Shown here: in pieces, positions 30,774-47,028 of the stretch
Layout: each line of letters begins with the position of its first letter
Numbering within the stretch: the first letter of the stretch is position 1
Source of the DNA: an uncultured Flavobacteriales bacterium
Lineage (GTDB): Bacteria; Bacteroidota; Bacteroidia; Flavobacteriales_D; CAJJDF01
Direction: 5' to 3'
Length of the DNA stretch: 64,000 bases
Assembly: GCA_938009745.1 (NCBI GenBank)
Contig: CALLII010000025.1
Coordinates: 586-64,585, forward strand
The notes under the pieces: generated by a model
What the model was told of the DNA's origin: nothing
The model's database searches: none
What the model saw: only the letters and a program-made list of their open reading frames with translations
Position numbers and translations under genes: made by a program

Positions 30774-33700
30774 ATGAAGCAGTTAGTAATTTTCTTATTC
30801 CTTTTATCCCCTTTTTTTGGATTTAATCAAAATTCAGAATCTTATCAATTTATTGAAAATAAAGGTCAATGGAATGAAAATGTTCAGTTTAAAACTGATA
30901 TTTCAGCAGGTAATCTTTATTTAGAAGCAAATAAAATTACCTACGATTTTTATAATCAAGAAGAAGTTGAAACTTATTTTCATGCTCACAATTCGCACCT
31001 TCTCCGAAAGGAAATAACAAAATTTAGAGCACATTCTTACCAAGTTGAGTTTATAGGTGGAAATGCTACAAGCATTAGGCCTACTGAAAAAAATATTGAA
31101 TATTACAATTATTTTATTGGTTCAGACAAAAGTAAATGGGCAAACAAAGTTTCAAGTTTCAACAAAATTAGATATGAAAACCTTTATAAATCAATTGATT
31201 TAATTTTTTATTCTAATTACGAATCATTAAAGTATGATTTCGTACTAAAACCTTCGGCAGATCCTTCTAATATTAAACTACTATACAATGGAGTTGATAA
31301 TATTAAGTTGTTAAAAGGGAGGTTAGTAATAAAGACATCAGTAAATAAAGTAATTGAAGAAAAACCTTATGCTTATCAAATTATTGATGGTGAAGAAATA
31401 GAAGTTGAATGTGAGTATACTTTATCTAACAATGTTTTAGGTTTTACTTTTCCTAGTGGATATGATAAAAGCAAAGAACTAATTATTGATCCTACTTTAA
31501 TTTTTTCTACATTTTCTGGTTCTACATCTAATAATTTTGGGTACACGGCCACATTTGATAGAGATGGATTTCTATATTCTGGATCAACTGTGTTTGGACC
31601 AACATACCCAACAACTATAGGAGCATATGATGTAACTTTTGATACCAATGGGATTGTTGATATTGCAATTACTAAATACGATACTACTGGAACATTCATG
31701 GTGTATTCTACTCTAGTTGGTGGTAATAGTGATGAGTTGCCGCACAGTATGATTGTAAACTCTAATGACGAAATCTTCGTTTATGGAACTACTAGTTCCA
31801 CTGATTTTCCTTTCACAACTGGTTGTTATGATTCGGTTTTTAATGGTGGTACAGCATTAAATTTAACCAATGGACTTGGAGTTAATTTTGTGAATGGATC
31901 GGATATATTTGTACTAAGATTAAGTCAAGCCGGAGATAACTTATTGTCATCAACATATGTTGGTGGTTCTGGGAATGACGGCTTAAATTCTACTTTAACC
32001 AATGATTTACGATATAATTATGCAGATGAGGTAAGAGGTGAAATAGAAATTGACAAAAACAATAACATTTATGTTGTTTCCTGTACTCGTTCCATAAACT
32101 TCCCAGTAACTGCTGGTGTTTTTCAGCCTACTCACGGAGGGAATGATTTAGATGGTGTTATTTTTAAAATGGATAATAAACTAACCACACTTATTTGGTC
32201 ATCTTATTTGGGAGGTAATGGAGATGATGCTGCTTACTCTGTAGCTCTTGATAGAAATGATAATGCTTATGTTGCTGGTGGTACAAACTCTAATAATTTT
32301 ATAAAATCAGCCAATGCTATTGATACATCCTATACAGGTGTTAGGGCAGATGGATTTATTACAAAAATAAACATAACTGGTTCAACAGTTTTAGCCTCTA
32401 CTTATTATGGTACAGATGCTTATGACCAGATTTATTTTATAGAGTTAGATAGAAGGGACAGTGTATATGTCTTTGGTCAAACTGATAAAATGGATTCTTC
32501 TTTTATAAAAAATGCAGGATATTTTACTTTTAATAGTGGTCAGTTTGTGACTAAAATGTCGCCAAATTTAGATACTATAGAATGGTCAACAGTTTTCGGT
32601 TCTGGAGGGGGAGGACCAAATATTTCTCCAACAGCTTTTCTGGTAGATGTTTGTAACAAAATTTATTTATCTGGTTGGGGAGGCGCTACAAACTTATTTG
32701 GAACAACAAATAATGCAATTACTACCACTGGAATGGATGTAACAGCAGGGGCATTTCAAACTACTACTGATGGTAGTGATTTTTATTTGATGGTACTTGA
32801 AAGTGATGCTTCCAATATTTTTTATGGTTCATTTTTTGGAGGTAACCAAAGTGACGAGCATGTAGATGGTGGAACAAGTCGATTCGATAGAAACGGTAGA
32901 ATGTATCAATCTGTTTGTGCAGGTTGTGGAGGTAATTCTGATTTCCCTATATTTCCATCTCCAGGGGCACACTCAGATACCAATGGAAGTAGCTGTAATA
33001 ATGCGGTATTCAAATTCGATTTTAATTTACCAATTACATTAGCAGATTTTAATCACAATCCAGTTTCTTGCCTTGGCGACACTACTTTTTTTACTAACAG
33101 AAGTTTAAGAGGAACTTCTTTTCAATGGTTTTTTGGTGATGGAACAGGTTCAACTGCTTACAGTCCATTTCATATTTATTCCAATCCAGGTAATTTTACC
33201 GTAACTCTCATAGTTTCAGATACATCTGCTTGTAATTTTTCTGATACTATTAGGAAGCAAGTAACTATTCTATCCGATTCATCATGGATGCTAGCTAACG
33301 ATACCATATGTGACAGTAGTTTTAAGCAAATAGGTTTTTTGCCTTCAACAAATCCTACAATAACATACAATTGGTCTCCAGGTATTGGGCTAAGTGATTC
33401 TACTATTTCTAATCCAATTGCATCTCCAATTAATACAACAACCTACCAGCTGTTAATTTCTAATGGAATTTGTACAGATACGGTTTCATTAACTGTTGTT
33501 GTTACTAAACTACAACTATTAGTTCCTAATGATACAACACTCTGTATTCCTGGCACACCAATCTCTATTTCTGCTAATACTTTTGGAACAACCAATGTGT
33601 ATCAATGGTCGTCTAACCCATTATTTACAGACACAATAAACACTAGTTTAGGTAATCCAGTTTTAACTGTTTCACCTAATATTTCAACAACTTATTTTAT

Positions 33701-34523
33701 AAGAGTAGGTAACAATAGTTGTTTTTTAGAAGACACAGTACGAGTGAATGTGTTTGCTTCTCAATTTTCAATCACAGGCCCAGATGCAGTTTGTTTTGGA
33801 GATACATTTCAATTATCCGTTATATCCAATAGCACTGATTCATTAACCTATAATTGGAGTCCAAACCCAGAGATAATTACGGGAGATTTTACACCAACTA
33901 TTTCTACAAGTCCTAATGGAACCACAATTTATTCCGTTACGATTACAAGTTCTCAAGGGTGTGTAATTACTTTAACCAAAAGGGTGTACGTTTCTCCCTT
34001 GCCAACAATGGCCTTGGGGGCTTCAGCAGATAGAGACACTATTTTTGAAGGGCAATCCGTTCAATTGAGTGCATTGCCATCTGGTTTTGCTTATTCTTGG
34101 ACTCCCTCAAGCACATTAAATAATTCAACTTCTCAAAATCCAATTGCTTCACCATCAAGTACTACAACTTATCGTGTAAGAGTTACCGATACAGGTTGTG
34201 TTCGAACAGCTACAATAACAATCTATATTTTAGATGTTATTTGCGGGCCACCTGATTTATATATCCCAAATGCATTTACACCAAATGGAGATGGCGATAA
34301 TGATGAATTACTTGTAAGAGGAAATAACATTACAAGCATGACTTTAAGAGTTTATCATAGATGGGGTGAAAAGGTGTTTGAAACAAGTGATCAAAATGAA
34401 GGCTGGGACGGAACCTACAAAGGAAAAGAATGCGATCCAGCTGTTTTTGTTTATTATTTGGATATAGAATGTAAAGGAGGAGAAACCTATCAAGAGAAAG
34501 GAAATGTAAGTTTGATTAGATAA
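30774..34523 (+). CDS. Large T9SS type-B cargo protein: SBBP beta-propeller repeats, a PKD domain, Ig-like repeats and a CHU_C/type-B sorting domain
   Basis: Signal peptide. Repeated ...FPxTxGxxQ...GGxDxFxxK... SBBP-like units. PKD-like WFFGDGTGS...HIYSNPGNFTVTLIV. C-terminal YIPNAFTPNGDGDNDEL...GWDGTYKG...VFVYYL...GNVSLIR. Confidence 0.85.
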   Translation: MKQLVIFLFLLSPFFGFNQNSESYQFIENKGQWNENVQFKTDISAGNLYLEANKITYDFYNQEEVETYFHAHNSHLLRKEITKFRAHSYQVEFIGGNATSIRPTEKNIEYYNYFIGSDKSKWANKVSSFNKIRYENLYKSIDLIFYSNYESLKYDFVLKPSADPSNIKLLYNGVDNIKLLKGRLVIKTSVNKVIEEKPYAYQIIDGEEIEVECEYTLSNNVLGFTFPSGYDKSKELIIDPTLIFSTFSGSTSNNFGYTATFDRDGFLYSGSTVFGPTYPTTIGAYDVTFDTNGIVDIAITKYDTTGTFMVYSTLVGGNSDELPHSMIVNSNDEIFVYGTTSSTDFPFTTGCYDSVFNGGTALNLTNGLGVNFVNGSDIFVLRLSQAGDNLLSSTYVGGSGNDGLNSTLTNDLRYNYADEVRGEIEIDKNNNIYVVSCTRSINFPVTAGVFQPTHGGNDLDGVIFKMDNKLTTLIWSSYLGGNGDDAAYSVALDRNDNAYVAGGTNSNNFIKSANAIDTSYTGVRADGFITKINITGSTVLASTYYGTDAYDQIYFIELDRRDSVYVFGQTDKMDSSFIKNAGYFTFNSGQFVTKMSPNLDTIEWSTVFGSGGGGPNISPTAFLVDVCNKIYLSGWGGATNLFGTTNNAITTTGMDVTAGAFQTTTDGSDFYLMVLESDASNIFYGSFFGGNQSDEHVDGGTSRFDRNGRMYQSVCAGCGGNSDFPIFPSPGAHSDTNGSSCNNAVFKFDFNLPITLADFNHNPVSCLGDTTFFTNRSLRGTSFQWFFGDGTGSTAYSPFHIYSNPGNFTVTLIVSDTSACNFSDTIRKQVTILSDSSWMLANDTICDSSFKQIGFLPSTNPTITYNWSPGIGLSDSTISNPIASPINTTTYQLLISNGICTDTVSLTVVVTKLQLLVPNDTTLCIPGTPISISANTFGTTNVYQWSSNPLFTDTINTSLGNPVLTVSPNISTTYFIRVGNNSCFLEDTVRVNVFASQFSITGPDAVCFGDTFQLSVISNSTDSLTYNWSPNPEIITGDFTPTISTSPNGTTIYSVTITSSQGCVITLTKRVYVSPLPTMALGASADRDTIFEGQSVQLSALPSGFAYSWTPSSTLNNSTSQNPIASPSSTTTYRVRVTDTGCVRTATITIYILDVICGPPDLYIPNAFTPNGDGDNDELLVRGNNITSMTLRVYHRWGEKVFETSDQNEGWDGTYKGKECDPAVFVYYLDIECKGGETYQEKGNVSLIR
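34260..34520 (+). other. Region encoding the T9SS type-B (gliding-motility-associated, CHU_C-like) C-terminal sorting domain
   Basis: YIPNAFTPNGDGDNDELLVRG...RWGEKVFE...GWDGTYKGKECDPAVFVYYLD...GNVSLIR. Confidence 0.8.
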
Positions 34524-34530
34524 TAAAATT

Positions 34531-34932
34531 ATGGATTTTAATATTTTTAAGTTAATAGTTATTTTGTTCTTTGGTATAATTTCTTTGAGTTTTATAACTA
34601 AATCAACAATCATATCTGATAATTGTAGTGTCCTAAAAAAAGGAACTTTTAGATATCTAGATTCAGATAATAAGAATGATTATTTTGTTATTGATGGCAA
34701 AAATCATATTGAATATTTAAATGATGGAAAATCTTGGATTAAATCAAAAGTTAAGTGGATAGAGGATTGCGAGTATGAATTAAGACTTAATAAGATTAAT
34801 TATCCCAATTTTCCTTTCAAAAAAGGAGACAAATTAAATATAAAAATTTTAGGTGGTAATAGCGATACTATTTTTTATAAATCTCAAATAGGTGCTTTTA
34901 TAAATAAAGGAAGATTATTAAAAATTCAATGA
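34531..34932 (+). CDS. Hypothetical small membrane-anchored or secreted protein located between the two T9SS cargo genes
   Basis: 133 aa with an N-terminal hydrophobic helix and two Cys (C32, C80). Starts 7 nt after the upstream stop. Not PorP/SprF-like in size or sequence. Confidence 0.5.
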   Translation: MDFNIFKLIVILFFGIISLSFITKSTIISDNCSVLKKGTFRYLDSDNKNDYFVIDGKNHIEYLNDGKSWIKSKVKWIEDCEYELRLNKINYPNFPFKKGDKLNIKILGGNSDTIFYKSQIGAFINKGRLLKIQ

Positions 34933-35045: not shown

Positions 35046-38000
35046 GTGAAAAAAACTATTTTAAATATCTCTTTTTTGCTTTTTGTATTTCTTTTTGGAA
35101 TACAGTTAAATAGCTTTGGCTCCCATTTTATGGGGTCCACATTATCCTACACTTGCACTGGTCCTAACCAATACCTAGTTACCTTAAAAGCTTATCGTGA
35201 TTGTGGAGGGATAACAATGCCACCTTCTTTTAGTGTTGCTTATAATGGTTGTGGAAGTTCTGGTAGTGTAACTGTGGCTTTACAAAGTTCTTCAGATATT
35301 TCTCCACTTTGTCCAACTTTAACCAGTATTTGCTCTGGCGGTTCATACCCATTTGGTTTAGAAGAACATATCTATACAGGTACAGTTACCGTCCCAGCTA
35401 ATTGTGCTAGTGTGATTTTTTCCACCTCTTCTTGTTGTAGAAACGGAAGTATTACAAATATTTCAATTCCTGGTTCTATAGGATTTTATACCAGTTCATT
35501 TCTAAATAATAATTTAACTACTTGTAATAGCTCCCCTACGTTTGCATCAGAACCAGCCCTATATACATGTTTAAATCAGTCTGTTGTTTTTCAGCAATTA
35601 GCAACCGATTCAGATGGCGATTCCTTAGTGTATTCTTTGGTAAATTGCCTACAATCTCCAGCAACAAGTGTTCCTTATGCTCCAGGATTTAGTGGAGTAA
35701 ATCCATTGACTACTCCTGTAACAATTGATCCTAATACAGGTGATTTATCTTTCACTGCTACTGCAATTCAAGTTGCATCTGTAAGTGTTTTAGTAGAAGA
35801 ATATAGGGCGGGAATTAAGGTTGGAGAAATTGTTCGCGATATGCAATTTACTATTCTCAATTGTTCCAATACTCTGCCGCAACTATCTGGTATTAATGGA
35901 GCTTCAGGAATATATTCTGTTAATACTTGCGAAGGTGCACCTATCTGTTTTAACATAAACGCAACTGACATAAATGCTGTTGATAATCTTTCAATGTTTT
36001 ATTCAGGAAATATTCCTGGAGCTACATTTACACAAACTGGAACCGGAAATAATCGTGTTGGTACTTTTTGTTGGACACCACCAATCGGTTCAGCAGGAAC
36101 TTATGTGTTTTCATTAGGAGTATTTGATGATGCTTGTCCAATTATTGGTCAAAATTCTAGATCATATATAGTAAATGTAAACTCAAATCCCAATACACCT
36201 ATTTCTGTAAGTGCAGATGTAGGAATTTGTTCGGGTTCAACCACAACACTTTTAGCTACTAATGTTACCCCTAACATTTCTTGGTCGCCTTCATTAGCAC
36301 TTTCAACAACTTCAGGAACTAGCACAAATGCATCTCCAACTTCAACAACAACCTACACTGCAACAGCTATTTACCCTGATGGCTGTAGTTCAAGTGATGA
36401 TGTTACTGTAACGGTTAATCCTGATCCAGTTGCCAATATTAGTCCTTCTTCTGCTAGTGTTTGCCCAGGAGGAAATATAACACTTACAGGTACTACAAAT
36501 TCTACAGGAATGACTTTCCAATGGTTCAATCCTTCAATGGGAGGTTTAGGCTCGGGAACGGTATCAGGAACTTCATCTAGTATTGTAGTATCAGTTCCTG
36601 CTGCTTCAGGTACTTATAATTATACTCTCCGAATTACTAATCCATCTACAGGATGTTCTTCTGATGCGATAGTTCCTTTATCAGTAGGAGCTCCTCCTAC
36701 TTTAGCTTCTTGTATTAATATATATGTTACACCTACGGGGTCATCTGCTGCTGCTGGTACACAGGCTAATCCTACAAATTTGGTTGAAGCACTAAGTCGA
36801 AGTGCTTGTCAAGGAGCAGTGATAAAAATGGCTATAGGAACTTATAATTTTAATAATGCAATCAATCTTCAAAGTTTTGTTACGATAGAGGGTGGTTTTG
36901 ATCAATTTTTTGGATGGAGAAAAACTAGCCAGCCAGGCGCAACTACAATCAATCGAACAACAGCAAGTCCAGAAGGATCAACAAATGCTCAAAGACTTGT
37001 AGCTTTTTATGGAAATAGTGCAACAGGTTTTAGATTACAAGATATTACTGTTAGAACTTCAGCAGCAAATCAGCCAGGTATGTCTACTTATGGTTTGCAT
37101 TTAACCTCTTGTTCTGATTATGATATTGTAAGATGTCAAATTCAGCCGGGAAATGCTGCTGCAGGTAGAAATGGAACAAATGGAACAAATGGAAACATAG
37201 GAAGGAATGGAGGGCGTGGATCAGCAGGTGACGGTAATGATTATGATGATTCTGGAGGAGGAGGAGGAGGAGGAGGAGGGGGAGGAACAACTGTTGGTAA
37301 TGCAGGTACTAATGCAAGCGGTAATTATAATTCGGCTAATAACTGCACTATAGCTGGTGGTAATGGTGGTGGTGGTGGTGCAACTGCTGGTAATGGTGGT
37401 AATGGTAGAGGCGATTCAAATGGTTGTGGTTGTTGTAATGCAGGTTCACAAGGTTATACAGGTGGTTCATCTTCAAATTCTCGAAGTGGTGGTGGTGGTG
37501 GTGGTGGTGCAAATGGTGGTTGCGAAGATGAAAATGGTGGCCGTGGTGGAAACGGAGGAGGTGTTTTAAGTGTCTATGGGTCAAATCTTGGTGGTGGTAA
37601 TGGTGGTAATGATGGAGGGAATGGTGGTGGTTATCCTGGAAGTAACGGTACTGCTGGTTCAAATGGTACTCTTGGATCTAATGGTGGTCTTGGTTCTAAT
37701 GGTTCGCATGTTGGGGGATTCTGGTCTCCAGGTAGTCAAGGGGGCAGTGGCAGTGATGGTAGTGGTGGTAGTGGTGGTGCAGGTGGCGGTGGTGGCGGTG
37801 GACAAGACTGTTTCTTTTGTTCTGATGGATGTGGTTCTGGAGGAGGAGGTGGTGGTGGTGGTGGCCAAGGAGGCCAAGGTGGTACTGGTGGTCGAGGAGG
37901 AGGATCCTCCTACGGGGTATATCTTTTCTCAAATGGTGCAAATGGAATAATTAATCAAAGTTTTGTAGATGCAGGGAATGCAGGTGGAGGTGGTACTCCA

Positions 38001-41000
38001 GGTACAGGCGGTACAGGTGGTGCAGGTGGTCTTGGTGGTAGTGGAAGCCCTTATACTGGTGGTGGAGAAGTTGGAGCAGGTGGAAATGGTGGACGAGGCG
38101 GAAATGGTGGATTAGGTCGAAGTGGTGGTGCTGGTCGTGCTGGTCAAACTATTGATGTTTACAGAGTAAGTGGTGCTTTTTTAACAACTCAGGTTACAAC
38201 ATTCAATCTTGCTGCCCAAACTACAATTACAGCTAGTAATGTAAATTGCACCAATACCAATGTAAATTATACAACAACATCTGCAAGTACGTGGGATTTT
38301 GACAGAGTCACCAATTATGCAACTCCTGCTACAGCAGGATCATCAAGTAACACTAATACTCAATATTCTCAAATAGCTCGTTATACTTTATCCAGAGGAG
38401 CTCATATTTATGAAGGATTTCATAATATTTCTTTTGATGGTTCATTAGCACCAGAAATAACAACTAATGCAGATTCAATTGGAGTCGATACTTTTCAGCT
38501 TTGCCAAGGAGATTTTGCAACTTTTAGCAGTGTGTATTCAGGATTAACTTATATATGGAATTTTAATGGAGCAATTACAAACCCAGGAACAACAGTTCAA
38601 AATACTCCTTCAATACAATTTAACACTCCTGGCTTTTATACTATTACACTTAGAACAACATCAGATTGTTGTGGACTATCTCCTACCAAAACAATTTATC
38701 TATATGTAGATGCATTACCAACAGTTACTGGGTCTGGTGCGGGTGCCATTTGTGAAGGTGAGAATAGAACTTTAACATTGACTGGTTTAGCAGTTAGTGA
38801 TAGTGTGATTTGGACACCCACTACTAATATTGTTTCTTCTACAACCAACACTATTACAGTTAGCCCATCAACAACTACAACTTATACTGCTTCTATTTAT
38901 ACTAAAACAATAGCGAGTGGTGTTACAAGATTAAGTTGTCCTATTTCTCGTCCACTTACAGTAACTGTGAGTCCAATCCCAACTATTGCTTTGACATTAA
39001 CGCAACCAAATTGCGGTAATAATGGACAAATTGTTGCCAATATTACTTCTGGGGGAGGGCTTTATAATTTTTCATGGTCTAATGGAGTATTTAGCTTTAA
39101 TTCCACCTCTTCTACAAATGGAAGTATTGGTGTAGGGTCATATTCTGTTACAGCAACTAACACTATTACAGGTTGTTCAGTTACGGACACTGTTTTCTTA
39201 TTCCCAGCTCCTGGATCACCTATCGTTTCAGTTCAAAATACTACCCCTGCAACTTGTGGCCTTAATAATGGTACTGCCAATGTTCTTGCATCAGGCGGAA
39301 CCGGACCTTATACTTATACTTGGAGTACTGGCGGTACAGGGACTAGTCGCACAAATTTAGCTGCTGCTACTTATTGTGTAACAGCTACTGATAATCTTGG
39401 ATGTCCTACTACAATATGTTTTGATATAACAACTCCAGATACTTTAAAAGTATCTCTATTATCTAGCAGTAACTTGATTTGTGCCAGTGATAGCAATGGT
39501 ACTGCTAAGGTAGAAGCAACAGGAGGTCAACCTATCTATACCTATCTTTGGTCTAATGGAGAAACAGGAGATTCTGCTTCTTCATTACCCGTAGGTACTT
39601 CTTATGTTATTGTTTCTGATTCCTCAGGATGTACTGATTCTCTTTCTTTTGTTTTGTTGGCTACCGGTCCTTCTACGAGTTCTACTCAAACTATAACAGT
39701 TTGTGATAGCTTGATTTCGCCAAGTGGAAAAATTTGGCGAACAGCAGGGACCTATTTTGATACAATCCCAAATTCAACTGGTTGTGATAGTTTATTAACT
39801 ATTACAGTTTCAATTTCTCCTGTAATCAACACGATTGATTCTATTACTGCTTGTGATTCGTTAACTTGGATAAATGGAATTACATATTACGCTAACAATA
39901 CAGCTGCAAAAGATACATTGTCTTCAATCCAAGGATGTGATTCTATTGTGAGTTTGAGTTTAATTATTAATAATACTTCAAGCTCAACTCAAACCGTTAC
40001 AGTTTGTGATAGCTTATTGTCTCCTAGCGGAAAAACTTGGAATACAACTGGCACTTATCTCGATACCATTATGAATGCTAGTGGTTGTGATAGCTTAATC
40101 ACTTTTAATCTTACAGTAAACTTTACATCAAGTTCTACTCAAACTTTAACTGTTTGTGATAGTTTAATATCTCCAAGTGGAAAAATTTGGTCAACATCCA
40201 ATACTTATTTAGATACAATTTTAAATGCAACTGGTTGTGACAGTCTAATGACATTTAATCTGACAGTAAACTACACGACTAGTTCAACTCAAACATTAAC
40301 AGTTTGTGATAGTTTAGTATCTCCAAGCGGAAAAATTTGGTCAACAACTGGCAATTATTTTGATACTATATTAAAAGCTAATGGGTGTGATAGTTTACTT
40401 ACATTTAACTTGACAATAAATACTACTTCAAGCTCAACTCAAACCCTTATAGTTTGTGATAGTTTAATATCTCCAAGTGGAAAAACTTGGAATACAACTG
40501 GCAATTATCTCGATACCATTATGAATGCTGGTGGTTGCGATAGTTTAATGACTTTTAATCTTACAGTAAACTTTACATCAAGTTCTACTCAAACAATAAC
40601 AGTTTGTGATAGTTTAATTTCTCCAAGCGGAAAAATTTGGTCAACAACAGGAACCTATCTTGATACAATTTCTAATTCATCAGGATGTGATTCATTACTT
40701 ACAATAAACCTTACAGTTTCCTCTACAATAAATAGTATAGATTCAGTTTTAGTATGTGATTCTCTTATTTGGATAGATGGAGTTACTTATTACACAAATA
40801 ATAATACAGCAAAAGACACATTGCCATCTTATCAAGGGTGTGACTCAATTATTACCTTGAATCTGACAGTAAACTATACTACAAGTTCTACTCAAGCAAC
40901 AACAATATGCGATAGCATGATCTCTCCAAGTGGTAAAATTTGGTCAACATCTGGAATATATCTAGACACGATAACAAATTCAAGTGGGTGTGATAGTTTA

Positions 41001-44000
41001 ATGACATTTAATTTGATAGTAAATAATACTTCAAGCTCAACTCAAACTTTAACAGTTTGTGATAGTTTGTTATCTCCAAGTGGAAAAACTTGGAATTCGA
41101 CAGGAACCTATTTGGATACTATTTTAAATGCAGCTGGCTGCGACAGTCTAATGACTTTTAATCTAACAGTAAACTTTAATTCCAGTTCCACTCAAACTAT
41201 TACTGTTTGTGACAGCTTTGTTTCGCCATCAGGAAAAACTTGGAATAATTCTGGAATGTACTTAGATACAATATTAAATACTTCGGGTTGTGACAGTTTA
41301 ATGACTTTTAATCTAACAGTAAATTATACCATTAGCATTACACTGACAGACACCTCATGTGACCAGTTTTTATGGCGTTCAAATAATCTAACTTCTTCAG
41401 GCACTTATTATGATACTGCAACTACAGGTTTTTGTGACAGTATTTTTACTTTAAACCTTACACTATTTAATTCAGTAGATAATTGGCAAAGTTTTATTGG
41501 GTGTGACAGTCTGCTTTTACCAAACGGAAATACAGTATTTTTCAGTGGTACATACAGAGATACTTTTTCAACAGTTAATGGATGTGATAGTATTCACAGG
41601 TATCAAGTAACCATGAGATCTACAATAATTACTAATGTTATCAATAGTTCTTGTGATAGTTTTACCAGTCCAAACGGACAAGTTTGGACTACTTCAGGAA
41701 TCTATGCAGATACTTTTAATACTGCGGGTGTTTGTGATAGCTTAGTCATTTATAATTTAACCATTAATTATACTACTTCCTCAATCCAAAACCTTACAGT
41801 TTGTGATAGTTTAATTTCTCCTTCTGGGAAATTTTGGAATAGCTCTGGAATATACTTGGACACAATAACAAGCAACTCAGGTTGTGATAGTTTAATGACT
41901 TTTAATCTTACTGTAAATTACACTTCAACTTCTTCAATATCCTTGACAGTTTGCGATAGTTTATTCTCTCCATCAGGGAAAATATGGAGATCAAATGGAG
42001 TCTATCTAGATACAATTTCTAATGTTTCTGGATGTGATAGTTTAATGACTTTTAATTTAACATTGAGTAATTACGCTCAAATTCCTTCAACCTTAAATGC
42101 TTGTGATAGTATTTCTTGGAGAGGAAGTTGGTATTCTAGTACTGGAATTTATAATGATTCTGTAATAGTTCCGGGTTGTGATACCGTTTTTATCTTAAAT
42201 CTTACTATTAATAACTCTAGTTCATCTGCTCAAACGATAACAGTTTGCGATAGTTTAGTGTCTCCAACTGGAAAAACTTGGAATACAACAGGAACTTATA
42301 GCGACACAATAGCCAATGCAATTGGTTGCGATAGTTTAATGACATTTAATTTGACGGTAAATTATACAACTAGTTCGTCTCAAACAATTACCGTTTGTGA
42401 TAGTATAGTCTCACCAAGTGGTAAAACTTGGAATACCACTGGAATTTACCTGGATACACTAGTAAAACCAAATGGATGCGATAGTCTTATGACGTTTAAT
42501 CTTACAGTTAACTATACTTCAAGCTCTTCTCAAATGATATCAGTTTGCGATAGTTTTGTTTCTCCAAGTGGAAAAATTTGGACTGCTACTGGTAATTATT
42601 TGGATACAATTCTAAATGCTTCAGGTTGCGATAGCTTATTAAGTATTAACCTTACAATAGCTCCAATTGCAAGAATTCCTCTAACAATAACAATTTGCGA
42701 TAGTGTTGTGTGGAGAGGTGTTACTTATACCACTACTGGAAATTATTCTGATACGCTATTAGTTGCAGGATGCGACACAATTTTTGACTTAAGCTTAACA
42801 GTAAATTACACTACAACTTCAAGTCAAACACTTACGGTTTGCGATAGTCTATTGTCTCCAAGCGGAAAAACTTGGAATACAACTGGTACTTATTTTGATA
42901 CAATTTTAAACTCAACTGGATGTGATAGTTTGATGACATTCAATCTTACAATAAACTACACAACAAGTTCTACTCAATTCTTAACAGTATGTGATAGTCT
43001 ATTATCGCCAAGTGGAAAAACATGGAATACTACAGGAACTTATTTAGATACAATAACTAAAACTGACGGATGTGATAGCTTAATAACATTTAATCTTACT
43101 GTGAATTCCACAACAAATTCATCCCAATCTATTACAACCTGCGATAGTTTATTATCACCAAGTGGAAAAATTTGGAGAACATCAGGAATCTATTTAGATA
43201 CTATATTAAACTCAAATGGTTGTGATAGTTTAATGACATTTAATTTAATTATAAACTTTACAACAAGTTCTACTCAAACTTTATCAGTTTGTGATAGCCT
43301 ATTGTCTCCAAGCGGAAAAACTTGGAATACAACAGGAATTTATTTGGATACAATTTTAAACTCATCTGGATGTGACAGTTTAATGACATTCAATCTTACA
43401 ATAAACTACACAACAAGTTCTACTCAAACCTTAACAGTATGCGATAGTCTATTGTCGCCAAGTGGAAAAATATGGAGTACCACAGGAACTTATTTAGATA
43501 CAATAACTAAAACTGATGGATGTGATAGTCTGATGACATTTAATCTTACTGTCAATTCTACAACAAATTCATCCCAATCTATTACAACCTGCGATAGTTT
43601 ATTATCACCAAGTGGAAAAATTTGGAGAACATCAGGAATCTATTTAGATACTATATTAAACTCAATTGGTTGTGATAGTTTAATGACATTTAATTTAACC
43701 ATTAGTGGGTTTATTCCTATTACAACTTCTGTTACAGCTTGTGATAGCTTAACTTGGAGAGGAGTAACTTATACTTCTTCTGGTACATATAATGATACTG
43801 TTTTAATACCTGGGTGTGATACCATTTATACATTGTCATTAGTAATAAATAATAGTTCAACCTCTATAATTAATCCAATATCATGTGGTCCGTACTCATC
43901 ACCAAGTGGAAAATCATATTCTACCTCAGGGAACTATTTAGATACTATTTCTAACACAATAGGTTGTGACAGTATAATTACCATTAACCTTATTGTAGAT

Positions 44001-45041
44001 ACAGTTTCTTATATTTCTGTTCTTGCATCTGGTTGCGACAGCTTTCAATTACCAGGAGGAACAATAGTATATACTTCAGGAGCATACAATGACACACTAA
44101 CCAATATAAGTGGTTGTGATAGTATAATTACAACCAATCTGTTTTTATCTCCTTCGTATAATCAATCCAACACCTTTAATTTATGTGCAGGGCAAACAGT
44201 TACAGTTGGAGCAAATATTTATGGAAGCACTGGAATTTACAGAGATACACTAGCTACTGCTTTTGGTTGTGATTCAATAATAGAAACTAACTTAACAATT
44301 AACCCACTTGTTTTAGGAACAATAACTTTTAGTAGTAATTTATGTCAAAATGATTTGCCAGCTACTTTCACTGCAACACCAATTGGTGGAAGATGGATTG
44401 GGACAGGTATAGATACAATTACTGGGGTTTTCTCACCTGCAATAGCGGGAGTAGGTATACACACAATTGTTTATATTCCAAATGGACCATGCCCATTGCC
44501 AGATACAGTTCAAGTTAATGTATTCTCAGTCCCAGTAATCAATTTTGATGAAACAGATGAGCTGTGTGATCAAGCTAATGGAGAAATTGATGTTACCATA
44601 ACAGGAGGAACACCAGCCTATATTTATAATTGGAGTAATGGTGACAGTACTCTTAATATTTCAAATCTAAAAGAAGGCTCATATTCTTTAATAGTATCGG
44701 ATGCTAATAACTGTTCAAATTCAGACAATACATCTCTAATAAATATTATAGATCCAGATTGTGAATTTGGTATTTATGTTCCAAACGTTTTCTCTCCTGA
44801 TGGCAATCAAGAAAACGACTTATTTTATGTGCAAGGATCAGGCATTGAAACTGTTAAGCTTGTCATATTTAATAGATATGGGAATAAAGTTTTTGAATCA
44901 AATGCAATTGGAGGAGGATGGGACGGAACCTATAAAGGGTCTCCAGTAAATCCAGATGTATTTGTTTACTATGTAGAAGGAACCTTTGTTAATGGAGAAG
45001 AATTTGAGAAAAAAGGAACAATAACTTTAATCAGGAGGTAG
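35046..45041 (+). CDS. Giant (3331 aa) T9SS type-B cargo/adhesin-like protein, GTG start
   Basis: One uninterrupted 9996-nt ORF. In order: signal peptide; Cys-rich N-domain (GSHFMGSTLSYTC...YRDCGG); cadherin-like TDSDGDSLVYSL; Ig-like modules; beta-helix-like YVTPTGS...NPTNL segment; Gly-rich region; PKD-like module; SprB-type repeats (CGNNGQIVANITSGGG.YNFSWSNG, CGLNNGTANVLASGGTGPYTYTWS, and others); 31 'CDS' repeats; type-B sorting domain. Confidence 0.85.
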   Translation: MKKTILNISFLLFVFLFGIQLNSFGSHFMGSTLSYTCTGPNQYLVTLKAYRDCGGITMPPSFSVAYNGCGSSGSVTVALQSSSDISPLCPTLTSICSGGSYPFGLEEHIYTGTVTVPANCASVIFSTSSCCRNGSITNISIPGSIGFYTSSFLNNNLTTCNSSPTFASEPALYTCLNQSVVFQQLATDSDGDSLVYSLVNCLQSPATSVPYAPGFSGVNPLTTPVTIDPNTGDLSFTATAIQVASVSVLVEEYRAGIKVGEIVRDMQFTILNCSNTLPQLSGINGASGIYSVNTCEGAPICFNINATDINAVDNLSMFYSGNIPGATFTQTGTGNNRVGTFCWTPPIGSAGTYVFSLGVFDDACPIIGQNSRSYIVNVNSNPNTPISVSADVGICSGSTTTLLATNVTPNISWSPSLALSTTSGTSTNASPTSTTTYTATAIYPDGCSSSDDVTVTVNPDPVANISPSSASVCPGGNITLTGTTNSTGMTFQWFNPSMGGLGSGTVSGTSSSIVVSVPAASGTYNYTLRITNPSTGCSSDAIVPLSVGAPPTLASCINIYVTPTGSSAAAGTQANPTNLVEALSRSACQGAVIKMAIGTYNFNNAINLQSFVTIEGGFDQFFGWRKTSQPGATTINRTTASPEGSTNAQRLVAFYGNSATGFRLQDITVRTSAANQPGMSTYGLHLTSCSDYDIVRCQIQPGNAAAGRNGTNGTNGNIGRNGGRGSAGDGNDYDDSGGGGGGGGGGGTTVGNAGTNASGNYNSANNCTIAGGNGGGGGATAGNGGNGRGDSNGCGCCNAGSQGYTGGSSSNSRSGGGGGGGANGGCEDENGGRGGNGGGVLSVYGSNLGGGNGGNDGGNGGGYPGSNGTAGSNGTLGSNGGLGSNGSHVGGFWSPGSQGGSGSDGSGGSGGAGGGGGGGQDCFFCSDGCGSGGGGGGGGGQGGQGGTGGRGGGSSYGVYLFSNGANGIINQSFVDAGNAGGGGTPGTGGTGGAGGLGGSGSPYTGGGEVGAGGNGGRGGNGGLGRSGGAGRAGQTIDVYRVSGAFLTTQVTTFNLAAQTTITASNVNCTNTNVNYTTTSASTWDFDRVTNYATPATAGSSSNTNTQYSQIARYTLSRGAHIYEGFHNISFDGSLAPEITTNADSIGVDTFQLCQGDFATFSSVYSGLTYIWNFNGAITNPGTTVQNTPSIQFNTPGFYTITLRTTSDCCGLSPTKTIYLYVDALPTVTGSGAGAICEGENRTLTLTGLAVSDSVIWTPTTNIVSSTTNTITVSPSTTTTYTASIYTKTIASGVTRLSCPISRPLTVTVSPIPTIALTLTQPNCGNNGQIVANITSGGGLYNFSWSNGVFSFNSTSSTNGSIGVGSYSVTATNTITGCSVTDTVFLFPAPGSPIVSVQNTTPATCGLNNGTANVLASGGTGPYTYTWSTGGTGTSRTNLAAATYCVTATDNLGCPTTICFDITTPDTLKVSLLSSSNLICASDSNGTAKVEATGGQPIYTYLWSNGETGDSASSLPVGTSYVIVSDSSGCTDSLSFVLLATGPSTSSTQTITVCDSLISPSGKIWRTAGTYFDTIPNSTGCDSLLTITVSISPVINTIDSITACDSLTWINGITYYANNTAAKDTLSSIQGCDSIVSLSLIINNTSSSTQTVTVCDSLLSPSGKTWNTTGTYLDTIMNASGCDSLITFNLTVNFTSSSTQTLTVCDSLISPSGKIWSTSNTYLDTILNATGCDSLMTFNLTVNYTTSSTQTLTVCDSLVSPSGKIWSTTGNYFDTILKANGCDSLLTFNLTINTTSSSTQTLIVCDSLISPSGKTWNTTGNYLDTIMNAGGCDSLMTFNLTVNFTSSSTQTITVCDSLISPSGKIWSTTGTYLDTISNSSGCDSLLTINLTVSSTINSIDSVLVCDSLIWIDGVTYYTNNNTAKDTLPSYQGCDSIITLNLTVNYTTSSTQATTICDSMISPSGKIWSTSGIYLDTITNSSGCDSLMTFNLIVNNTSSSTQTLTVCDSLLSPSGKTWNSTGTYLDTILNAAGCDSLMTFNLTVNFNSSSTQTITVCDSFVSPSGKTWNNSGMYLDTILNTSGCDSLMTFNLTVNYTISITLTDTSCDQFLWRSNNLTSSGTYYDTATTGFCDSIFTLNLTLFNSVDNWQSFIGCDSLLLPNGNTVFFSGTYRDTFSTVNGCDSIHRYQVTMRSTIITNVINSSCDSFTSPNGQVWTTSGIYADTFNTAGVCDSLVIYNLTINYTTSSIQNLTVCDSLISPSGKFWNSSGIYLDTITSNSGCDSLMTFNLTVNYTSTSSISLTVCDSLFSPSGKIWRSNGVYLDTISNVSGCDSLMTFNLTLSNYAQIPSTLNACDSISWRGSWYSSTGIYNDSVIVPGCDTVFILNLTINNSSSSAQTITVCDSLVSPTGKTWNTTGTYSDTIANAIGCDSLMTFNLTVNYTTSSSQTITVCDSIVSPSGKTWNTTGIYLDTLVKPNGCDSLMTFNLTVNYTSSSSQMISVCDSFVSPSGKIWTATGNYLDTILNASGCDSLLSINLTIAPIARIPLTITICDSVVWRGVTYTTTGNYSDTLLVAGCDTIFDLSLTVNYTTTSSQTLTVCDSLLSPSGKTWNTTGTYFDTILNSTGCDSLMTFNLTINYTTSSTQFLTVCDSLLSPSGKTWNTTGTYLDTITKTDGCDSLITFNLTVNSTTNSSQSITTCDSLLSPSGKIWRTSGIYLDTILNSNGCDSLMTFNLIINFTTSSTQTLSVCDSLLSPSGKTWNTTGIYLDTILNSSGCDSLMTFNLTINYTTSSTQTLTVCDSLLSPSGKIWSTTGTYLDTITKTDGCDSLMTFNLTVNSTTNSSQSITTCDSLLSPSGKIWRTSGIYLDTILNSIGCDSLMTFNLTISGFIPITTSVTACDSLTWRGVTYTSSGTYNDTVLIPGCDTIYTLSLVINNSSTSIINPISCGPYSSPSGKSYSTSGNYLDTISNTIGCDSIITINLIVDTVSYISVLASGCDSFQLPGGTIVYTSGAYNDTLTNISGCDSIITTNLFLSPSYNQSNTFNLCAGQTVTVGANIYGSTGIYRDTLATAFGCDSIIETNLTINPLVLGTITFSSNLCQNDLPATFTATPIGGRWIGTGIDTITGVFSPAIAGVGIHTIVYIPNGPCPLPDTVQVNVFSVPVINFDETDELCDQANGEIDVTITGGTPAYIYNWSNGDSTLNISNLKEGSYSLIVSDANNCSNSDNTSLINIIDPDCEFGIYVPNVFSPDGNQENDLFYVQGSGIETVKLVIFNRYGNKVFESNAIGGGWDGTYKGSPVNPDVFVYYVEGTFVNGEEFEKKGTITLIRR
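37149..38145 (+). repeat. Glycine-rich low-complexity coding region with in-frame GGN triplet tracts
   Basis: About 335 aa, about half Gly by eye. Tracts are (GGA)8+GGG+(GGA)2 at 37254-37286, (GGT)7 at 37488-37508, and (GGA)3(GGT)5GGC at 37839-37865, all in the gene's frame. GC content is locally elevated. Confidence 0.85.
39661..44300 (+). repeat. Tandem array of 31 coding repeats of ~150 nt (~50 aa), each with two Cys-Asp-Ser motifs
   Basis: Consensus is TVCDSL[IL]SPSGK[IT]WxT[TS]GxYLDTIxNxxGCDSLMTFNLTVN[YF]T[TS]SSTQT[LI]. Units were counted by hand from the translation. gtttgtgatagt recurs about every 150 nt. Confidence 0.9.
42941..43698 (+). repeat. Higher-order (3-unit, 450-bp offset) near-identical duplication inside the repeat array
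   Basis: 42941-43248 versus 43391-43698 differ at ~15 of 308 positions by hand count. 43111-43248 versus 43561-43698 differ at 1 of 138 positions. Confidence 0.8.
44775..45038 (+). other. Region encoding the T9SS type-B C-terminal sorting domain of the giant protein
   Basis: YVPNVFSPDGNQENDLFYVQG...RYGNKVFE...GWDGTYKGSPVNPDVFVYYVE...GTITLIRR. Confidence 0.8.
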
Positions 45042-45170: not shown

Positions 45171-45653
45171 ATGACAGCACAAGTAGGTATAATAATGGGA
45201 AGTAAATCTGATATGCCTGTTATGAAAGCAGCAGCAACAGTATTAGATGAATTAGGATTAAACTATGAGTTAACAATAGTTTCTGCGCACAGAACTCCCG
45301 AGAGAATGATGGATTATGCTCGTAATGCAAAATCTAAAGGACTTAAAGTTATTATTGCAGGAGCAGGAGGAGCAGCTCATTTACCAGGAATGGTAGCAAG
45401 TATTACTACTTTGCCAGTAATTGGAGTACCAGTTAAATCAAGTAACTCAATTGATGGGTGGGATTCAATACTTTCAATACTTCAAATGCCAGGTGGAGTG
45501 CCGGTAGCAACTGTAGCTCTTGACGGAGCAAAAAATGCAGGAATATTAGCTGCACAAATTATAGGGACAGCTAACGAACAAGTAAGTAACAAGCTCCAAG
45601 AATACAAAGAGCTTATGAAGGCTAAAGTAATGGACTCAATTAACGAATTATAA
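45171..45653 (+). CDS. purE: 5-(carboxyamino)imidazole ribonucleotide mutase (class I PurE)
   Basis: VGIIMGSKSD, SAHRTPERM and AGGAAHLPGMVAS motifs. Confidence 0.9.
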   Translation: MTAQVGIIMGSKSDMPVMKAAATVLDELGLNYELTIVSAHRTPERMMDYARNAKSKGLKVIIAGAGGAAHLPGMVASITTLPVIGVPVKSSNSIDGWDSILSILQMPGGVPVATVALDGAKNAGILAAQIIGTANEQVSNKLQEYKELMKAKVMDSINEL

Positions 45654-45955
45654 TGAGTTTCATTTCTAACTTAAAAGATAAGTTTCCTAATTTTTTAAAA
45701 AATAAATGGGCAATTTCCTTTTTAATCCTTTTTGTGTGGGTTTTATTTTTTGAAGACATAAATCTTATATCTCTTATCAAAACTAAAACTAAAATATCTC
45801 GATTAGAACAAGAGTGGGTATTTAAAGAAAATAGAATCAAAGAAGCAGAAGAAAAAAAACTACTTATATTAGGTAATCCTGAAAAGTATGCAAGGGAAAC
45901 TTTTTGGATGAAGATGGCTGATGAGGAATTATTCATAATTCCAGAAAATAAATAA
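45653..45955 (+). CDS. FtsB/DivIC-like septum formation initiator family protein
   Basis: 100 aa. TM helix, a coiled segment (ISRLEQEWVFKENRIKEAEEK), then PEKYARETFWMKMADEELFII, the typical family C-terminus. The start overlaps the purE stop (TAATG). Confidence 0.55.
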   Translation: MSFISNLKDKFPNFLKNKWAISFLILFVWVLFFEDINLISLIKTKTKISRLEQEWVFKENRIKEAEEKKLLILGNPEKYARETFWMKMADEELFIIPENK

Positions 45956-46080
45956 TCAATTAAATATTTATTTCTTGTCTACAACTACTATTCCTTCTAT
46001 CAATATGACTTGCAGTTTGATTTTTCTTTACTTTTTTTTAAAACATTCTTCAAAACAGTTGGTATAATAAAAAAAAACTG

Positions 46081-46088
46081 TAAATTTG
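46081..46088 (+). promoter_or_regulatory. TAnnTTTG -7 promoter motif (TAAATTTG) for the ribosomal str/S10/spc/alpha cluster
   Basis: Perfect consensus, 41 nt upstream of the rpsL ATG. A partial -33-like TTG (46059-46061) lies 19 nt upstream. Confidence 0.5.
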
Positions 46089-46129
46089 CACCCCGATAAA
46101 TAGTAAAATAGTACTTAATAAACAGTCAG

Positions 46130-46504
46130 ATGCCAACTATACAACAATTAATAAGAAAAGGAAGGACTTCTAATACAAAGGTTAGTAAGTCAATAGCACT
46201 TAACTCTTGTCCTCAAAAAAGAGGGGTGTGTGTAAGAGTATACACAGCTACTCCAAAGAAGCCAAATTCTGCAATGAGAAAAGTTGCCAGAGTTAGACTA
46301 ACTAATGGAAAAGAAGTGAATGCTTATATTGGTGGAGAAGGACACAACTTACAGGAACACAGTATTGTGTTAGTAAGAGGAGGAAGAGTAAAAGATCTTC
46401 CAGGTGTAAGATACCACATAGTAAGAGGATCATTAGATACTGCCGGAGTAGATGGTAGAACTCAAAGAAGATCTAAATACGGAACAAAAAGACCTAAAAA
46501 CTAA
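46130..46504 (+). CDS. rpsL: 30S ribosomal protein S12
   Basis: [12 protein letters not shown]...[16 protein letters not shown] is canonical S12. Confidence 0.97.
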
Positions 46505-46554
46505 AAACATTACATACTCTACCTATTAAATTAGGAGTATTATAACAATCAGTT

Positions 46555-47025
46555 ATGAGAAGAAGAACCGCCAAAAAGCACAGAATTTTACCAGATCCAA
46601 AATTCAATGATGTGCAAGTAACCAAGTTTGTAAACAACTTGATGATGCATGGAAAAAAGGAACTAGCGTTCGATATTTTTTACACAGCATTAGAGATCGT
46701 AGAATCTAAAATTGAAGACGAAGCTCCATTGGAGGTTTTCAAAAAAGGATTAAAAAACATTACTCCAGACGTAGAAGTACGAAGTAGAAGAGTAGGTGGG
46801 GCAACTTACCAAATTCCACAACCAATTAGAGACGGAAGAAAAGAATCCTTAGGGATGAAGTGGTTAATCTCATTCGCAAGAAAGAGAAATGATAACACTA
46901 TGGGTCAAAAATTGGCTTCTGAGATAATGGCAGCTTTCAAAGAAGAAGGTGGAGCGATTAAGAAGAAAGAAGATACTATCAGAATGGCTGAAGCAAATAA
47001 GGCATTTTCACATTTTAGATTTTAA
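46555..47025 (+). CDS. rpsG: 30S ribosomal protein S7
   Basis: [17 protein letters not shown]...[16 protein letters not shown]. Confidence 0.97.
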
Positions 47026-47028
47026 GAG

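Follow-up and report, generated by a model that had tools for sequence, protein, structure and literature searches.

A conserved glycine-rich module of Bacteroidota type IX secretion cargo proteins, predicted to fold as a polyglycine II-type lattice on a short β-helix

What does a secreted bacterial protein do with more than 300 consecutive residues of which nearly half are glycine? The question is raised by a 64,000-nucleotide stretch of DNA (hereafter the window) from an uncultured Flavobacteriales bacterium (GenBank assembly GCA_938009745.1, contig CALLII010000025.1, positions 586 to 64,585). An uninterrupted open reading frame (ORF) with a GTG start at window positions 35046–45041, on the forward strand like all features described within it, encodes a protein of 3331 residues. 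A preliminary description of this DNA had pointed to a region of ~335 residues, about half of them Gly, in a type IX secretion system (T9SS) cargo protein. Window positions 37149–38145 indeed encode residues 702–1034 of this single ORF, 333 residues that comprise 152 Gly (45.6%), 10.8% Asn, and 9.9% Ser. The locally raised GC content noted at the same time is also seen, at 0.48–0.53 across the Gly-rich stretch vs about 0.33–0.38 in its flanks, with a strongly positive GC skew; it is a consequence of the GGN codons, among which GGT accounts for 92 of the 152. As set out below, the region probably forms the core of an extracellular module, conserved among Bacteroidota T9SS cargo proteins, that folds autonomously as a polyproline II (PPII)/polyglycine II (PGII) lattice on a short β-helix and may act as a distal binding scaffold.

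The spacing of Gly at every third position provides what we regard as the main sequence evidence for PPII helices. Gly–Gly autocorrelation, judged against 2000 shuffles, is raised at lag 3 (z = 6.3) and lag 6 (z = 3.3) and stands at chance at lags 1, 2, 4, and 5. The signal resides in six runs of ~24 residues each (residues 707–730, 865–888, 896–919, 930–953, 977–1000, and 1007–1030), and the earlier statement that G-X-Y periodicity is lacking does not hold. By family-wide Gly frequencies, three classes can be distinguished: G-x-x, with some Pro at x (residues 707–730 and 865–888); G-G-x or G-x-G (residues 905–913, 942–953, 980–1000, and 1010–1030); and G-G-G (residues 913–917 and 935–940). 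The x positions are rich in Ala, Asn, Thr, and Ser, and Pro is tolerated there. A period-3 pattern made of G-x-x, G-G-x, and G-G-G runs is characteristic of Gly-rich PPII/PGII bundles. In PPII assemblies, packing is collagen-like at one-third Gly, two-layer sheets arise at two-thirds Gly, and all-Gly helices make a honeycomb, each of them in contact with six neighbors (bioRxiv 10.1101/2023.11.25.568672). The three run classes match this hierarchy of one-third, two-thirds, and all-Gly helices.

The Gly-rich stretch is embedded in a larger conserved module (residues 553–1130; window 36702–38435) that consists of a β-helix, the Gly-rich part, and an Ig/PKD-like sandwich and measures ~540–580 residues across the family. 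Roughly 100 proteins strongly related to residues 551–1130 (E 1e-111 to 1e-50) were found by search; the majority are 650–1000 residues long and carry a T9SS type-A domain at the C-terminus. Where a source is named, it is Fluviicola, Crocinitomicaceae, Chitinophagales, Bacteroidia, or Bacteroidales, all within Bacteroidota. An exhaustive HMMER search over 1.84 billion cluster representatives yielded 859 clusters at E ≤ 1e-3, 462 at E ≤ 1e-10, and 188 at E ≤ 1e-30. The full module was found with a hidden Markov model (HMM) of it in 205 of the 253 proteins fetched. More distant relatives keep the β-helix and Gly part (HMM positions about 8–450) and are missing the C-terminal sandwich.

Within this family, the Gly-rich part is constrained in length and position. 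A comparison of its length across relatives, which the preliminary description had proposed, gives a fixed value: the median among 91 homologues is 320 residues (range 277–356; 34–47% Gly), with the window copy the longest. In 168 non-redundant sequences (<70% identity), the 69 columns of the six runs with Gly at ≥0.8 average only 0.38 bits, and the 61 interleaved x columns average 3.06 bits, more variable than either the β-helix (1.98 bits) or the sandwich (2.48 bits). Insertions average 0.009 residues per column in the runs, ten times fewer than the 0.084 of the intervening loops, and the loops at residues 731–814 and 838–864 are indel-rich. Invariant backbone positions combined with free side chains and no indels are, in our view, the signature of a backbone-defined fold. 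The Gly-rich stretch thus appears to be a fixed-length conserved domain and no floppy linker, and given this conservation, its composition cannot reasonably be a chance feature.

AlphaFold2 (AF2), run with a 100-sequence alignment, yields a confident model of the whole module, with a mean predicted local distance difference test score (pLDDT) of 87 and a predicted template modeling score (pTM) of 0.81. The Gly part modeled alone (residues 690–1045) reaches a pLDDT of 84.6 and a pTM of 0.79. In both models, DSSP assigns neither helix nor strand to the Gly runs, most residues of which have a pLDDT of 87–98, largely above 90. Hence the AlphaFold check that had been suggested returned a confident fold and not pure disorder. 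Position-wise Gly conservation, fixed length, and confident prediction of runs that are neither helix nor strand together favor the earlier guess of a polyglycine II-type or Gly-rich scaffold. We hold the reading of the fold as a PPII/PGII lattice with moderate confidence.

With the whole module as query, 49 of the top 50 Foldseek matches in the PDB are β-helix-type proteins (e.g., 5olr, 1xg2, 4mxn, and 2pyg), among them pectin methylesterases, polysaccharide lyases, epimerases, and phage tailspikes, with one PKD-like exception; these matches are weak (E 3e-3 to 0.15, TM score ≤0.3). Against the viral structure database BFVD, the whole module matches β-helix proteins and "collagen repeat" phage proteins, nothing specific. 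The Gly part, compared with 350,542 PDB chains, returns only 9d93_Qa and 9d93_Qb, at non-significant E values of 0.9 and 1.7 and TM scores of 0.06–0.09. Both chains are gp33 of mycobacteriophage Bxb1, the "tail wing brush", a PF21722 protein; this lead is suggestive, not significant.

The module opens with a predicted right-handed parallel β-helix, consisting of an N-terminal cap and some three rungs (residues 553–701; window 36702–37148) and recognized by AF2 strand triplets at a pLDDT of 97–98. This agrees with the β-helix that had been placed upstream of the Gly-rich region, and the Foldseek results are consistent with it, if weak (E from 3e-3). Conserved motifs of this segment are C.IYVT..G...G.GT..P, EGGF, W.K.S..GAT.I.R, FR.QD.T, and STYG..L..CS.Y...RC, and its N-terminal rungs show conserved QD and R/K residues. 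Rungs of the form S[ST][YF]G.xL... occur both ahead of and within the Gly part. An internal repeat unit that we call unit A (residues 679–730; window 37080–37235), delimited by hhalign and Gly frequencies, joins a PbH1-like rung, STYGLHLTSCSDYDIVRCQIQPGNAAAG, to a (G-x-x)8 run at residues 707–730. In this run, every third column is Gly at a frequency of 0.90–0.99, and Pro occurs to some extent in the third position of the triplets; its pLDDT is mostly 94–98, falling to 79 at residues 721–730.

Behind unit A lies a variable, low-confidence loop (residues 733–794; window 37242–37427; pLDDT 39–61), part of a wider loop spanning about residues 731–800. It holds an insertion of about 28 residues (742–769) specific to the window protein, with an alignment occupancy of about 0 in 99 homologues. 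Ahead of this insertion is a G11 run encoded by an in-frame (GGA)11 trinucleotide microsatellite with one GGG interruption (window 37254–37286); run and insertion are both absent from nearly all homologues and have low pLDDT. The microsatellite resembles the product of recent slippage and expansion within a variable loop, and its length could differ between strains. The conserved G7 and G9 runs described below are, unlike this G11, encoded by mixed Gly codons. CGCCNAG (residues 794–800), singled out earlier as a Cys cluster, overlaps the same loop of low confidence, and VLSVYGSNL (residues 840–848), taken for a hydrophobic strand, is unconserved and lies in a variable, indel-rich loop at a pLDDT of about 55. 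Judging from the alignment, these two of the five landmark motifs in the preliminary description are not family features.

The second (G-x-x)8 run, GSNGTAGSNGTLGSNGGLGSNGSH (residues 865–888; window 37638–37709; pLDDT 87–97), has Gly at 0.93–1.00 in every third column and x positions of about 3 bits with up to 26% Pro. It precedes the central Gly core (residues 896–953; window 37731–37904), which Gly frequencies delimit as a G-G-x run, an invariant G7, a turn of the form Q-x-C-x-F-C-x-D-G, an invariant G9, and a further G-G-x run. The two arms of its consensus, GGxGGxGGGGGGG-QxCxFCxDG-xGNGGGGGGGGGQGGxGGTGGxGGG, approximately mirror each other around the Cys turn, suggesting a long hairpin. The family alignment has Gly at ≥0.95 at residues 913–917 and 935–940, and pLDDT is 87–98 in the arms and 70 in the turn. 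The second Cys cluster that had been pointed out, DCFFCSDGCG, falls in this turn and is only in part a family feature, C925 alone being nearly invariant and C922 common.

The Gly part then returns to the β-helix. Unit B (residues 954–1000; window 37905–38045), defined by AF2 strands and hhalign, consists of a rung, SSYGVYLFSNGANGIINQSFVDAGNAGGGG, and a (G-G-x) run in which two of every three columns have Gly at ≥0.84 (the last column, 0.71). The AF2 strands of this unit fall at model residues 405–411 and 418–420, with a pLDDT of 93–98. Its residues 954–976, SSYGVYLFSNGANGIINQSFV, had been listed as a strand landmark and prove to be a further conserved β-helix rung within the Gly-rich region. 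The last (G-G-x) run (residues 1007–1034; window 38064–38147; pLDDT 93–98) begins with a conserved E-[IV]-G and has Asn-rich x positions (31%). The module closes with an Ig/PKD-like β-sandwich of ~95 residues (1035–1130; window 38148–38435), defined by AF2 strands at a pLDDT of 92–97 and matched by Foldseek to 4aqo, the PKD-like domain of ColG (probability 0.94, TM score relative to the target 0.49). The Gly-rich region had been described as set between a β-helix and a PKD-like module. Its β-helix flank agrees with the AF2 prediction; on the other side, this sandwich intervenes before PKD_4 (PF18911; residues 1165–1218; window 38538–38699; E 0.011, under the gathering score), the next domain after the module and outside it.

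Units A and B are related to each other. Aligned with hhalign, they match over 51 columns (probability 96%, E 4e-9), STYGxHLxNCSxYxIVRCxIxxGNAxxG followed by (Gxx)n against SSFGIYLxNNGxNGxIxDCxIxxGxAGxGG followed by (GGx)n. From this alignment, it would follow that the domain grew at least partly by duplicating a unit of one rung and one Gly run.

Taken together, these observations lead us to propose that a short right-handed β-helix, made of the cap and some three rungs, is broken into and then prolonged by about 320 residues, and that the six period-3 runs within these residues adopt PPII/PGII helices. Packed side by side through backbone hydrogen bonds, the helices would form a multilayer lattice, with the all-Gly G7 and G9 segments as its buried core, the G-G-x segments as the next shell, and the collagen-like G-x-x runs at the periphery, the x side chains facing solvent. 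The module starts at or before residue 60, directly behind the signal peptide, in 141 of the 205 full copies, and hence at the opposite end of the chain from the T9SS sorting domain. With the module at the extreme N-terminus and the sorting domain at the C-terminus, the module would lie at the cell-distal end. It could thus serve as a rigid, compact scaffold at the tip of a surface-anchored fiber, where variable x positions and inter-run loops would present a diversifiable binding surface, as do the Gly-rich adhesin tips of the phages S16 (gp38) and Pam3 (gp24) and the ligand-binding domain of ALK/LTK. A rigid distal binding or adhesion head fits both this position and the pairing of an invariant scaffold with hypervariable x positions and loops, and we propose it with low confidence, by analogy.

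Several points weigh against this proposal. Foldseek against the PDB found no match to the solved PGII domains (sfAFP, ALK/LTK, gp38, and Obg). AF2 confidence on Gly-rich sequences has little experimental calibration, and about 70 of the 333 residues (731–800) are predicted with low confidence. High pLDDT without DSSP helix or strand would support PPII just indirectly, PPII geometry, helix count, and topology being inferred from it. As to function, neighboring genes are not conserved and no ligand is implied; the hypervariable x positions could reflect a lack of constraint instead of diversifying selection.

How well do other explanations account for the same data? An intrinsically disordered, low-complexity Gly spacer between folded domains of a giant adhesin, conserved in composition only, would be in keeping with the extreme composition bias, with the missing regular secondary structure by DSSP, and with the low pLDDT of residues 731–800, which contain the slippage-prone (GGA)11. 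We consider it very unlikely, as Gly columns are conserved by position while their neighbors vary freely, the runs are nearly indel-free and the length fixed across homologues at about 40–55% identity, and pLDDT exceeds 90 over most of the region, with a pTM of 0.79 for the Gly part alone. The mixed codons of the conserved poly-Gly runs and the β-helix rung embedded mid-region also argue against a spacer. Eight triplets are short for a collagen, and it is unlikely that the two (G-x-x)8 runs are collagen-like trimerizing segments, as in phage tail fibers and bacterial collagen-like proteins, with the rest a linker. Both runs are in perfect register with some Pro at X/Y, the family profile matches PDB collagens and a collagen-like fibril (8zxl, E 3.9e-16; 3hqv, E 2e-4) with very high bias, and the top viral Foldseek match (BFVD) is a "collagen triple helix repeat" phage protein. 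These PDB matches, however, are composition-driven, with about 14 bits per domain at a bias of ≥65. PF01391 (Collagen) gives no match at E ≤ 10, most Gly lies in G-G-x and G-G-G runs that are not collagen sequence, and AF2 predicts, at high confidence, a compact fold for one chain alone.

A third alternative is a continuing solenoid, in which the Gly runs are no PPII helices but wrap as further rungs on the β-helix, the module being one long, unusual β-helix or β-roll, possibly a metal- or polysaccharide-binding protein or an enzyme. The run length of ~24 residues equals a typical β-helix rung, the runs stand directly behind PbH1-like rungs in a repeated rung-plus-run unit, the structural neighbors found by Foldseek are β-helix carbohydrate-active enzymes, and the N-terminal rungs carry conserved QD and R/K residues. 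Against it, the dominant period is 3 and not 2, and the runs lack DSSP strands or ladders despite high pLDDT. There is no RTX or other β-roll register, and the Pfam families Beta_helix, Pectate_lyase, and HemolysinCabind give no matches; we regard this explanation as unlikely. Finally, a PPII bundle could itself present a surface that binds ice, for antifreeze activity or ice adhesion. Bacteroidota are known to secrete ice-binding proteins, and the x positions are rich in Ala, Asn, Thr, and Ser. The best-studied Gly-rich PPII bundles are springtail antifreeze proteins (AFPs), whose G-x-x repeats place small Ala, Thr, and Asn residues on a flat face (PMC11364801). The x positions of the module are hypervariable, though, and form no conserved flat face, neither sequence nor Foldseek similarity to sfAFP or GrAFP was found, and the source names of the relatives have no link to cold habitats; a role in ice binding is thus highly improbable.

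Searches of family libraries place the module in none of them. Pfam scans of residues 551–1110 and 702–1045 at E ≤ 10 returned nothing, including for PF12810, PF21722, PF01391, Beta_helix, Pectate_lyase, and HemolysinCabind. NCBIfam scans of the module and the Gly part found no family and PHROGs scans 0 families, the E cutoffs of these library scans reaching up to 1–10. Searching the PDB by sequence, whether from the one protein or the family profile, turned up just linkers, composition-driven collagens, and the T9SS C-terminal domains of homologues. In line with the preliminary description, confident homology to any described Gly-rich family was not found, and on the evidence of these searches, the module appears to belong to no known family and is missing from every library searched.

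Individual candidates fared no better. Membership in PF12810 (ALK_LTK_GRD) is not supported by Pfam, and hhalign of the family's Gly-rich profile against the PF12810 segment of the homologue P0115 scores 11.8 vs 10.1 ± 1.7 for shuffles, no improvement on these controls; the β part of the module matches right-handed β-helices and not the TNF-like β-sandwich scaffold of ALK/LTK. For PF21722 (Gly_rich_2), likewise without a Pfam match, hhalign against gp33 scores 14.7, inside the span of the shuffled sequences (10.8 ± 2.1, maximum 16.1). A gp38-type phage adhesin is not indicated either, with 0 PHROGs families and 6F45 absent among the Foldseek PDB matches. The earlier exclusion of RTX repeats is upheld: a single chance match to GGxG[DN]xUx (GGGGQDCFF, residue 916), no tandem array or register, and no HemolysinCabind match. 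P0115, from a Bacteroidales metagenome-assembled genome (MAG), carries a PF12810 domain at residues 4–114 (E 5.6e-7) and the Gly-lattice module at about residues 598–960. As they lie ~600 residues apart in one protein, these are two distinct domains, and Bacteroidota surface proteins employ at least two unrelated Gly-rich domain types.

In the window protein, the module sits within a far longer chain. A Sec signal peptide with a hydrophobic N-terminus, MKKTILNISFLLFVFLFGIQLNSFG, is followed by a ~550-residue N-terminal region with Ig-like domains, the Gly-lattice module, PKD/Ig domains, about 40 Cys-containing repeats of ~50 residues, and a T9SS type-B C-terminal domain. The latter (residues 3244–3330; window 44775–45035) is recognized by TIGR04131 (43.5 bits, cutoff 35; E 2.5e-11) and PF13585 (CHU_C; 47.2 bits, cutoff 27; E 2.5e-12). 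With a C-terminal domain over the curated cutoffs and an N-terminal signal peptide, the protein is by its sequence signals a T9SS type-B cargo protein, in agreement with the preliminary description. The region ahead of the module (residues 1–551; window 35046–36700) comprises a Cys-rich N-terminal domain and Ig_7-type domains and recurs in other proteins. The module starts at residues 350–900 in 59 proteins, as it does here, and begins at about residues 540–570 in dozens of giant homologues of 1500–5300 residues. This suggests that an N-terminal head plus module is a conserved architecture, separate from the short proteins that begin with the module.

The ~50-residue repeats (window 39974–43698) have the consensus TxCDSLxSPSGKxWxxxGxYxDTIxNxxGCDSLxTFNLTVN and correspond to 150-bp tandem DNA repeats. 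One 450-bp unit is duplicated at 94% identity (42837–43698), which points to a very recent duplication. Pfam finds no genuine family in these repeats, the SF3b10 and Talin matches there being spurious; in short homologues, P0003 and P0007 among them, repeats of this type come after the module. Mechanically called ORFs of 81–126 residues with His/Leu or Val/Met runs overlap window positions 37348–37950 in other frames and on the minus strand and are reading-frame artifacts of the GGT/GGA repeats, not genes.

Directly upstream, at window positions 30774–34523, is a second T9SS type-B cargo protein of 1249 residues with DUF7948, SBBP β-propeller repeats, PKD, and CHU_C domains; the two giant surface-protein genes stand in tandem, separated by a 133-residue ORF without a Pfam match (34531–34932). 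Downstream follow purE (AIRC), rpsG (S7), and fusA (EF-G) at 45171–49161. Type-B cargo genes often adjoin a porP/sprF-like gene. None is present among these next downstream genes (45171–49161), the rest of the window not having been searched for one. In the loci of two homologues, the neighbors are unrelated housekeeping genes, and across the window and these two loci, no conserved neighbors or operon clue emerge. A search for related loci with the host protein as single query returned one Flavobacteriales MAG locus, covering the C-terminal half only.

Natural Gly-rich PPII/PGII bundles are rare, and a 2024 survey lists springtail AFPs, Obg, CO2-incorporating carboxylating enzymes, a phage tail-fiber tip, ALK, and LTK (bioRxiv 10.1101/2023.11.25.568672). 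It is possible, although we stop short of calling it probable, that the module represents an independently evolved, undescribed family of PGII lattices: ~320 residues with at least 12 PPII helices (an estimate from the six runs), made by duplication of rung and run, a hybrid of β-helix and PPII without a solved counterpart, and widespread on Bacteroidota surfaces. If so, it might rank among the largest natural PGII lattice domains, and cellular bacteria would join phages, animals, and springtails in using Gly lattices as extracellular recognition scaffolds. Such bundles are sought after, both as scaffolds for design and to model a third type of protein architecture. A family of 462 clusters (E ≤ 1e-10) offers hundreds of natural variants from cultivable-type bacteria, and its graded G-x-x, G-G-x, and G-G-G design offers rich data on the packing rules of PPII lattices. 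The module thus presents a new fold target for structure determination, and a domain now unannotated in many T9SS surface proteins gains a name and a boundary. For annotation, it is a warning that half-glycine stretches of secreted bacterial proteins need not be disordered linkers.

Among known systems, the β-helix portion resembles right-handed parallel β-helices of the pectin-lyase fold (PbH1) in its N-terminal cap motif and rungs, as seen by AF2 and Foldseek. It differs in having about four rungs in all, no Pfam Beta_helix match, no recognizable catalytic site, and a 250-residue Gly insertion between rungs. The PGRS domains of mycobacterial PE_PGRS proteins are likewise large Gly-rich (GGx) domains on a bacterial surface, and AlphaFold confidently predicts them to be PPII "sails", without an experimental structure (PMC9436101, PMC13243192). 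They belong to another phylum and secretion route and are highly polymorphic in length, whereas the module is fixed in length and has no PE domain; no sequence similarity to PGRS domains appeared in any search made. Springtail AFPs (sfAFP, 2PNE/3BOG; GrAFP) share near-continuous G-x-x/G-G-x triplets and consist of 6–13 PPII helices with disulfides at the turns (PMC11364801). Unlike the module, they are small, stand-alone, two-layer bundles with neither a β-helix nor an Ig partner, and no similarity between the two was detected.

The ALK/LTK Gly-rich domain (PF12810; PDB 7N00 and 7NX1) is likewise extracellular and carries poly-Gly on a β scaffold, which is a TNF-like sandwich there and a β-helix in the module. 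Its poly-Gly stretches, 6–9 residues long, probably assemble into a hexagonal PGII lattice built onto that scaffold. Bxb1 gp33 (Gly_rich_2; PDB 9D93), also Gly-rich, is the sole PDB protein returned for the Gly part, if non-significantly, and has been described as a PPII bundle resembling gp38 (PMC13243192).

A further parallel in design is with phage adhesins. In gp38 of Salmonella phage S16 (PDB 6F45), a β-helix domain is followed by a 10-motif lattice, and gp24 of cyanophage Pam3 has six loops with two Gly-rich motifs each, forming a four-layer lattice with central GGGGxGG motifs and variable distal tips (PMC9608196). Neither sequence searches nor Foldseek showed any similarity between the module and these adhesins. 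At 125 residues and 49 Gly, gp24 is two to three times smaller than the Gly-rich part of the module, with its about 320 residues and 83 conserved Gly columns. The collagen-like (G-x-x)8 runs and the β-helix rung embedded in the Gly part also set the module apart, and gp38 and gp24 are virion proteins, whereas the module belongs to cellular T9SS cargo. Common to both would be a β-rich domain, a β-helix in gp38, that bears a lattice of paired Gly-rich motifs, the central position of the most Gly-rich motifs, and the place of the lattice at the distal end of a fiber (PMC9608196). The module would appear to work in the manner of the PGII lattice domains of these adhesins and of ALK/LTK, though no test made places it in either group, and as in gp38-type proteins, its conserved Gly motifs alternate with hypervariable segments, a resemblance in design and no sign of membership.

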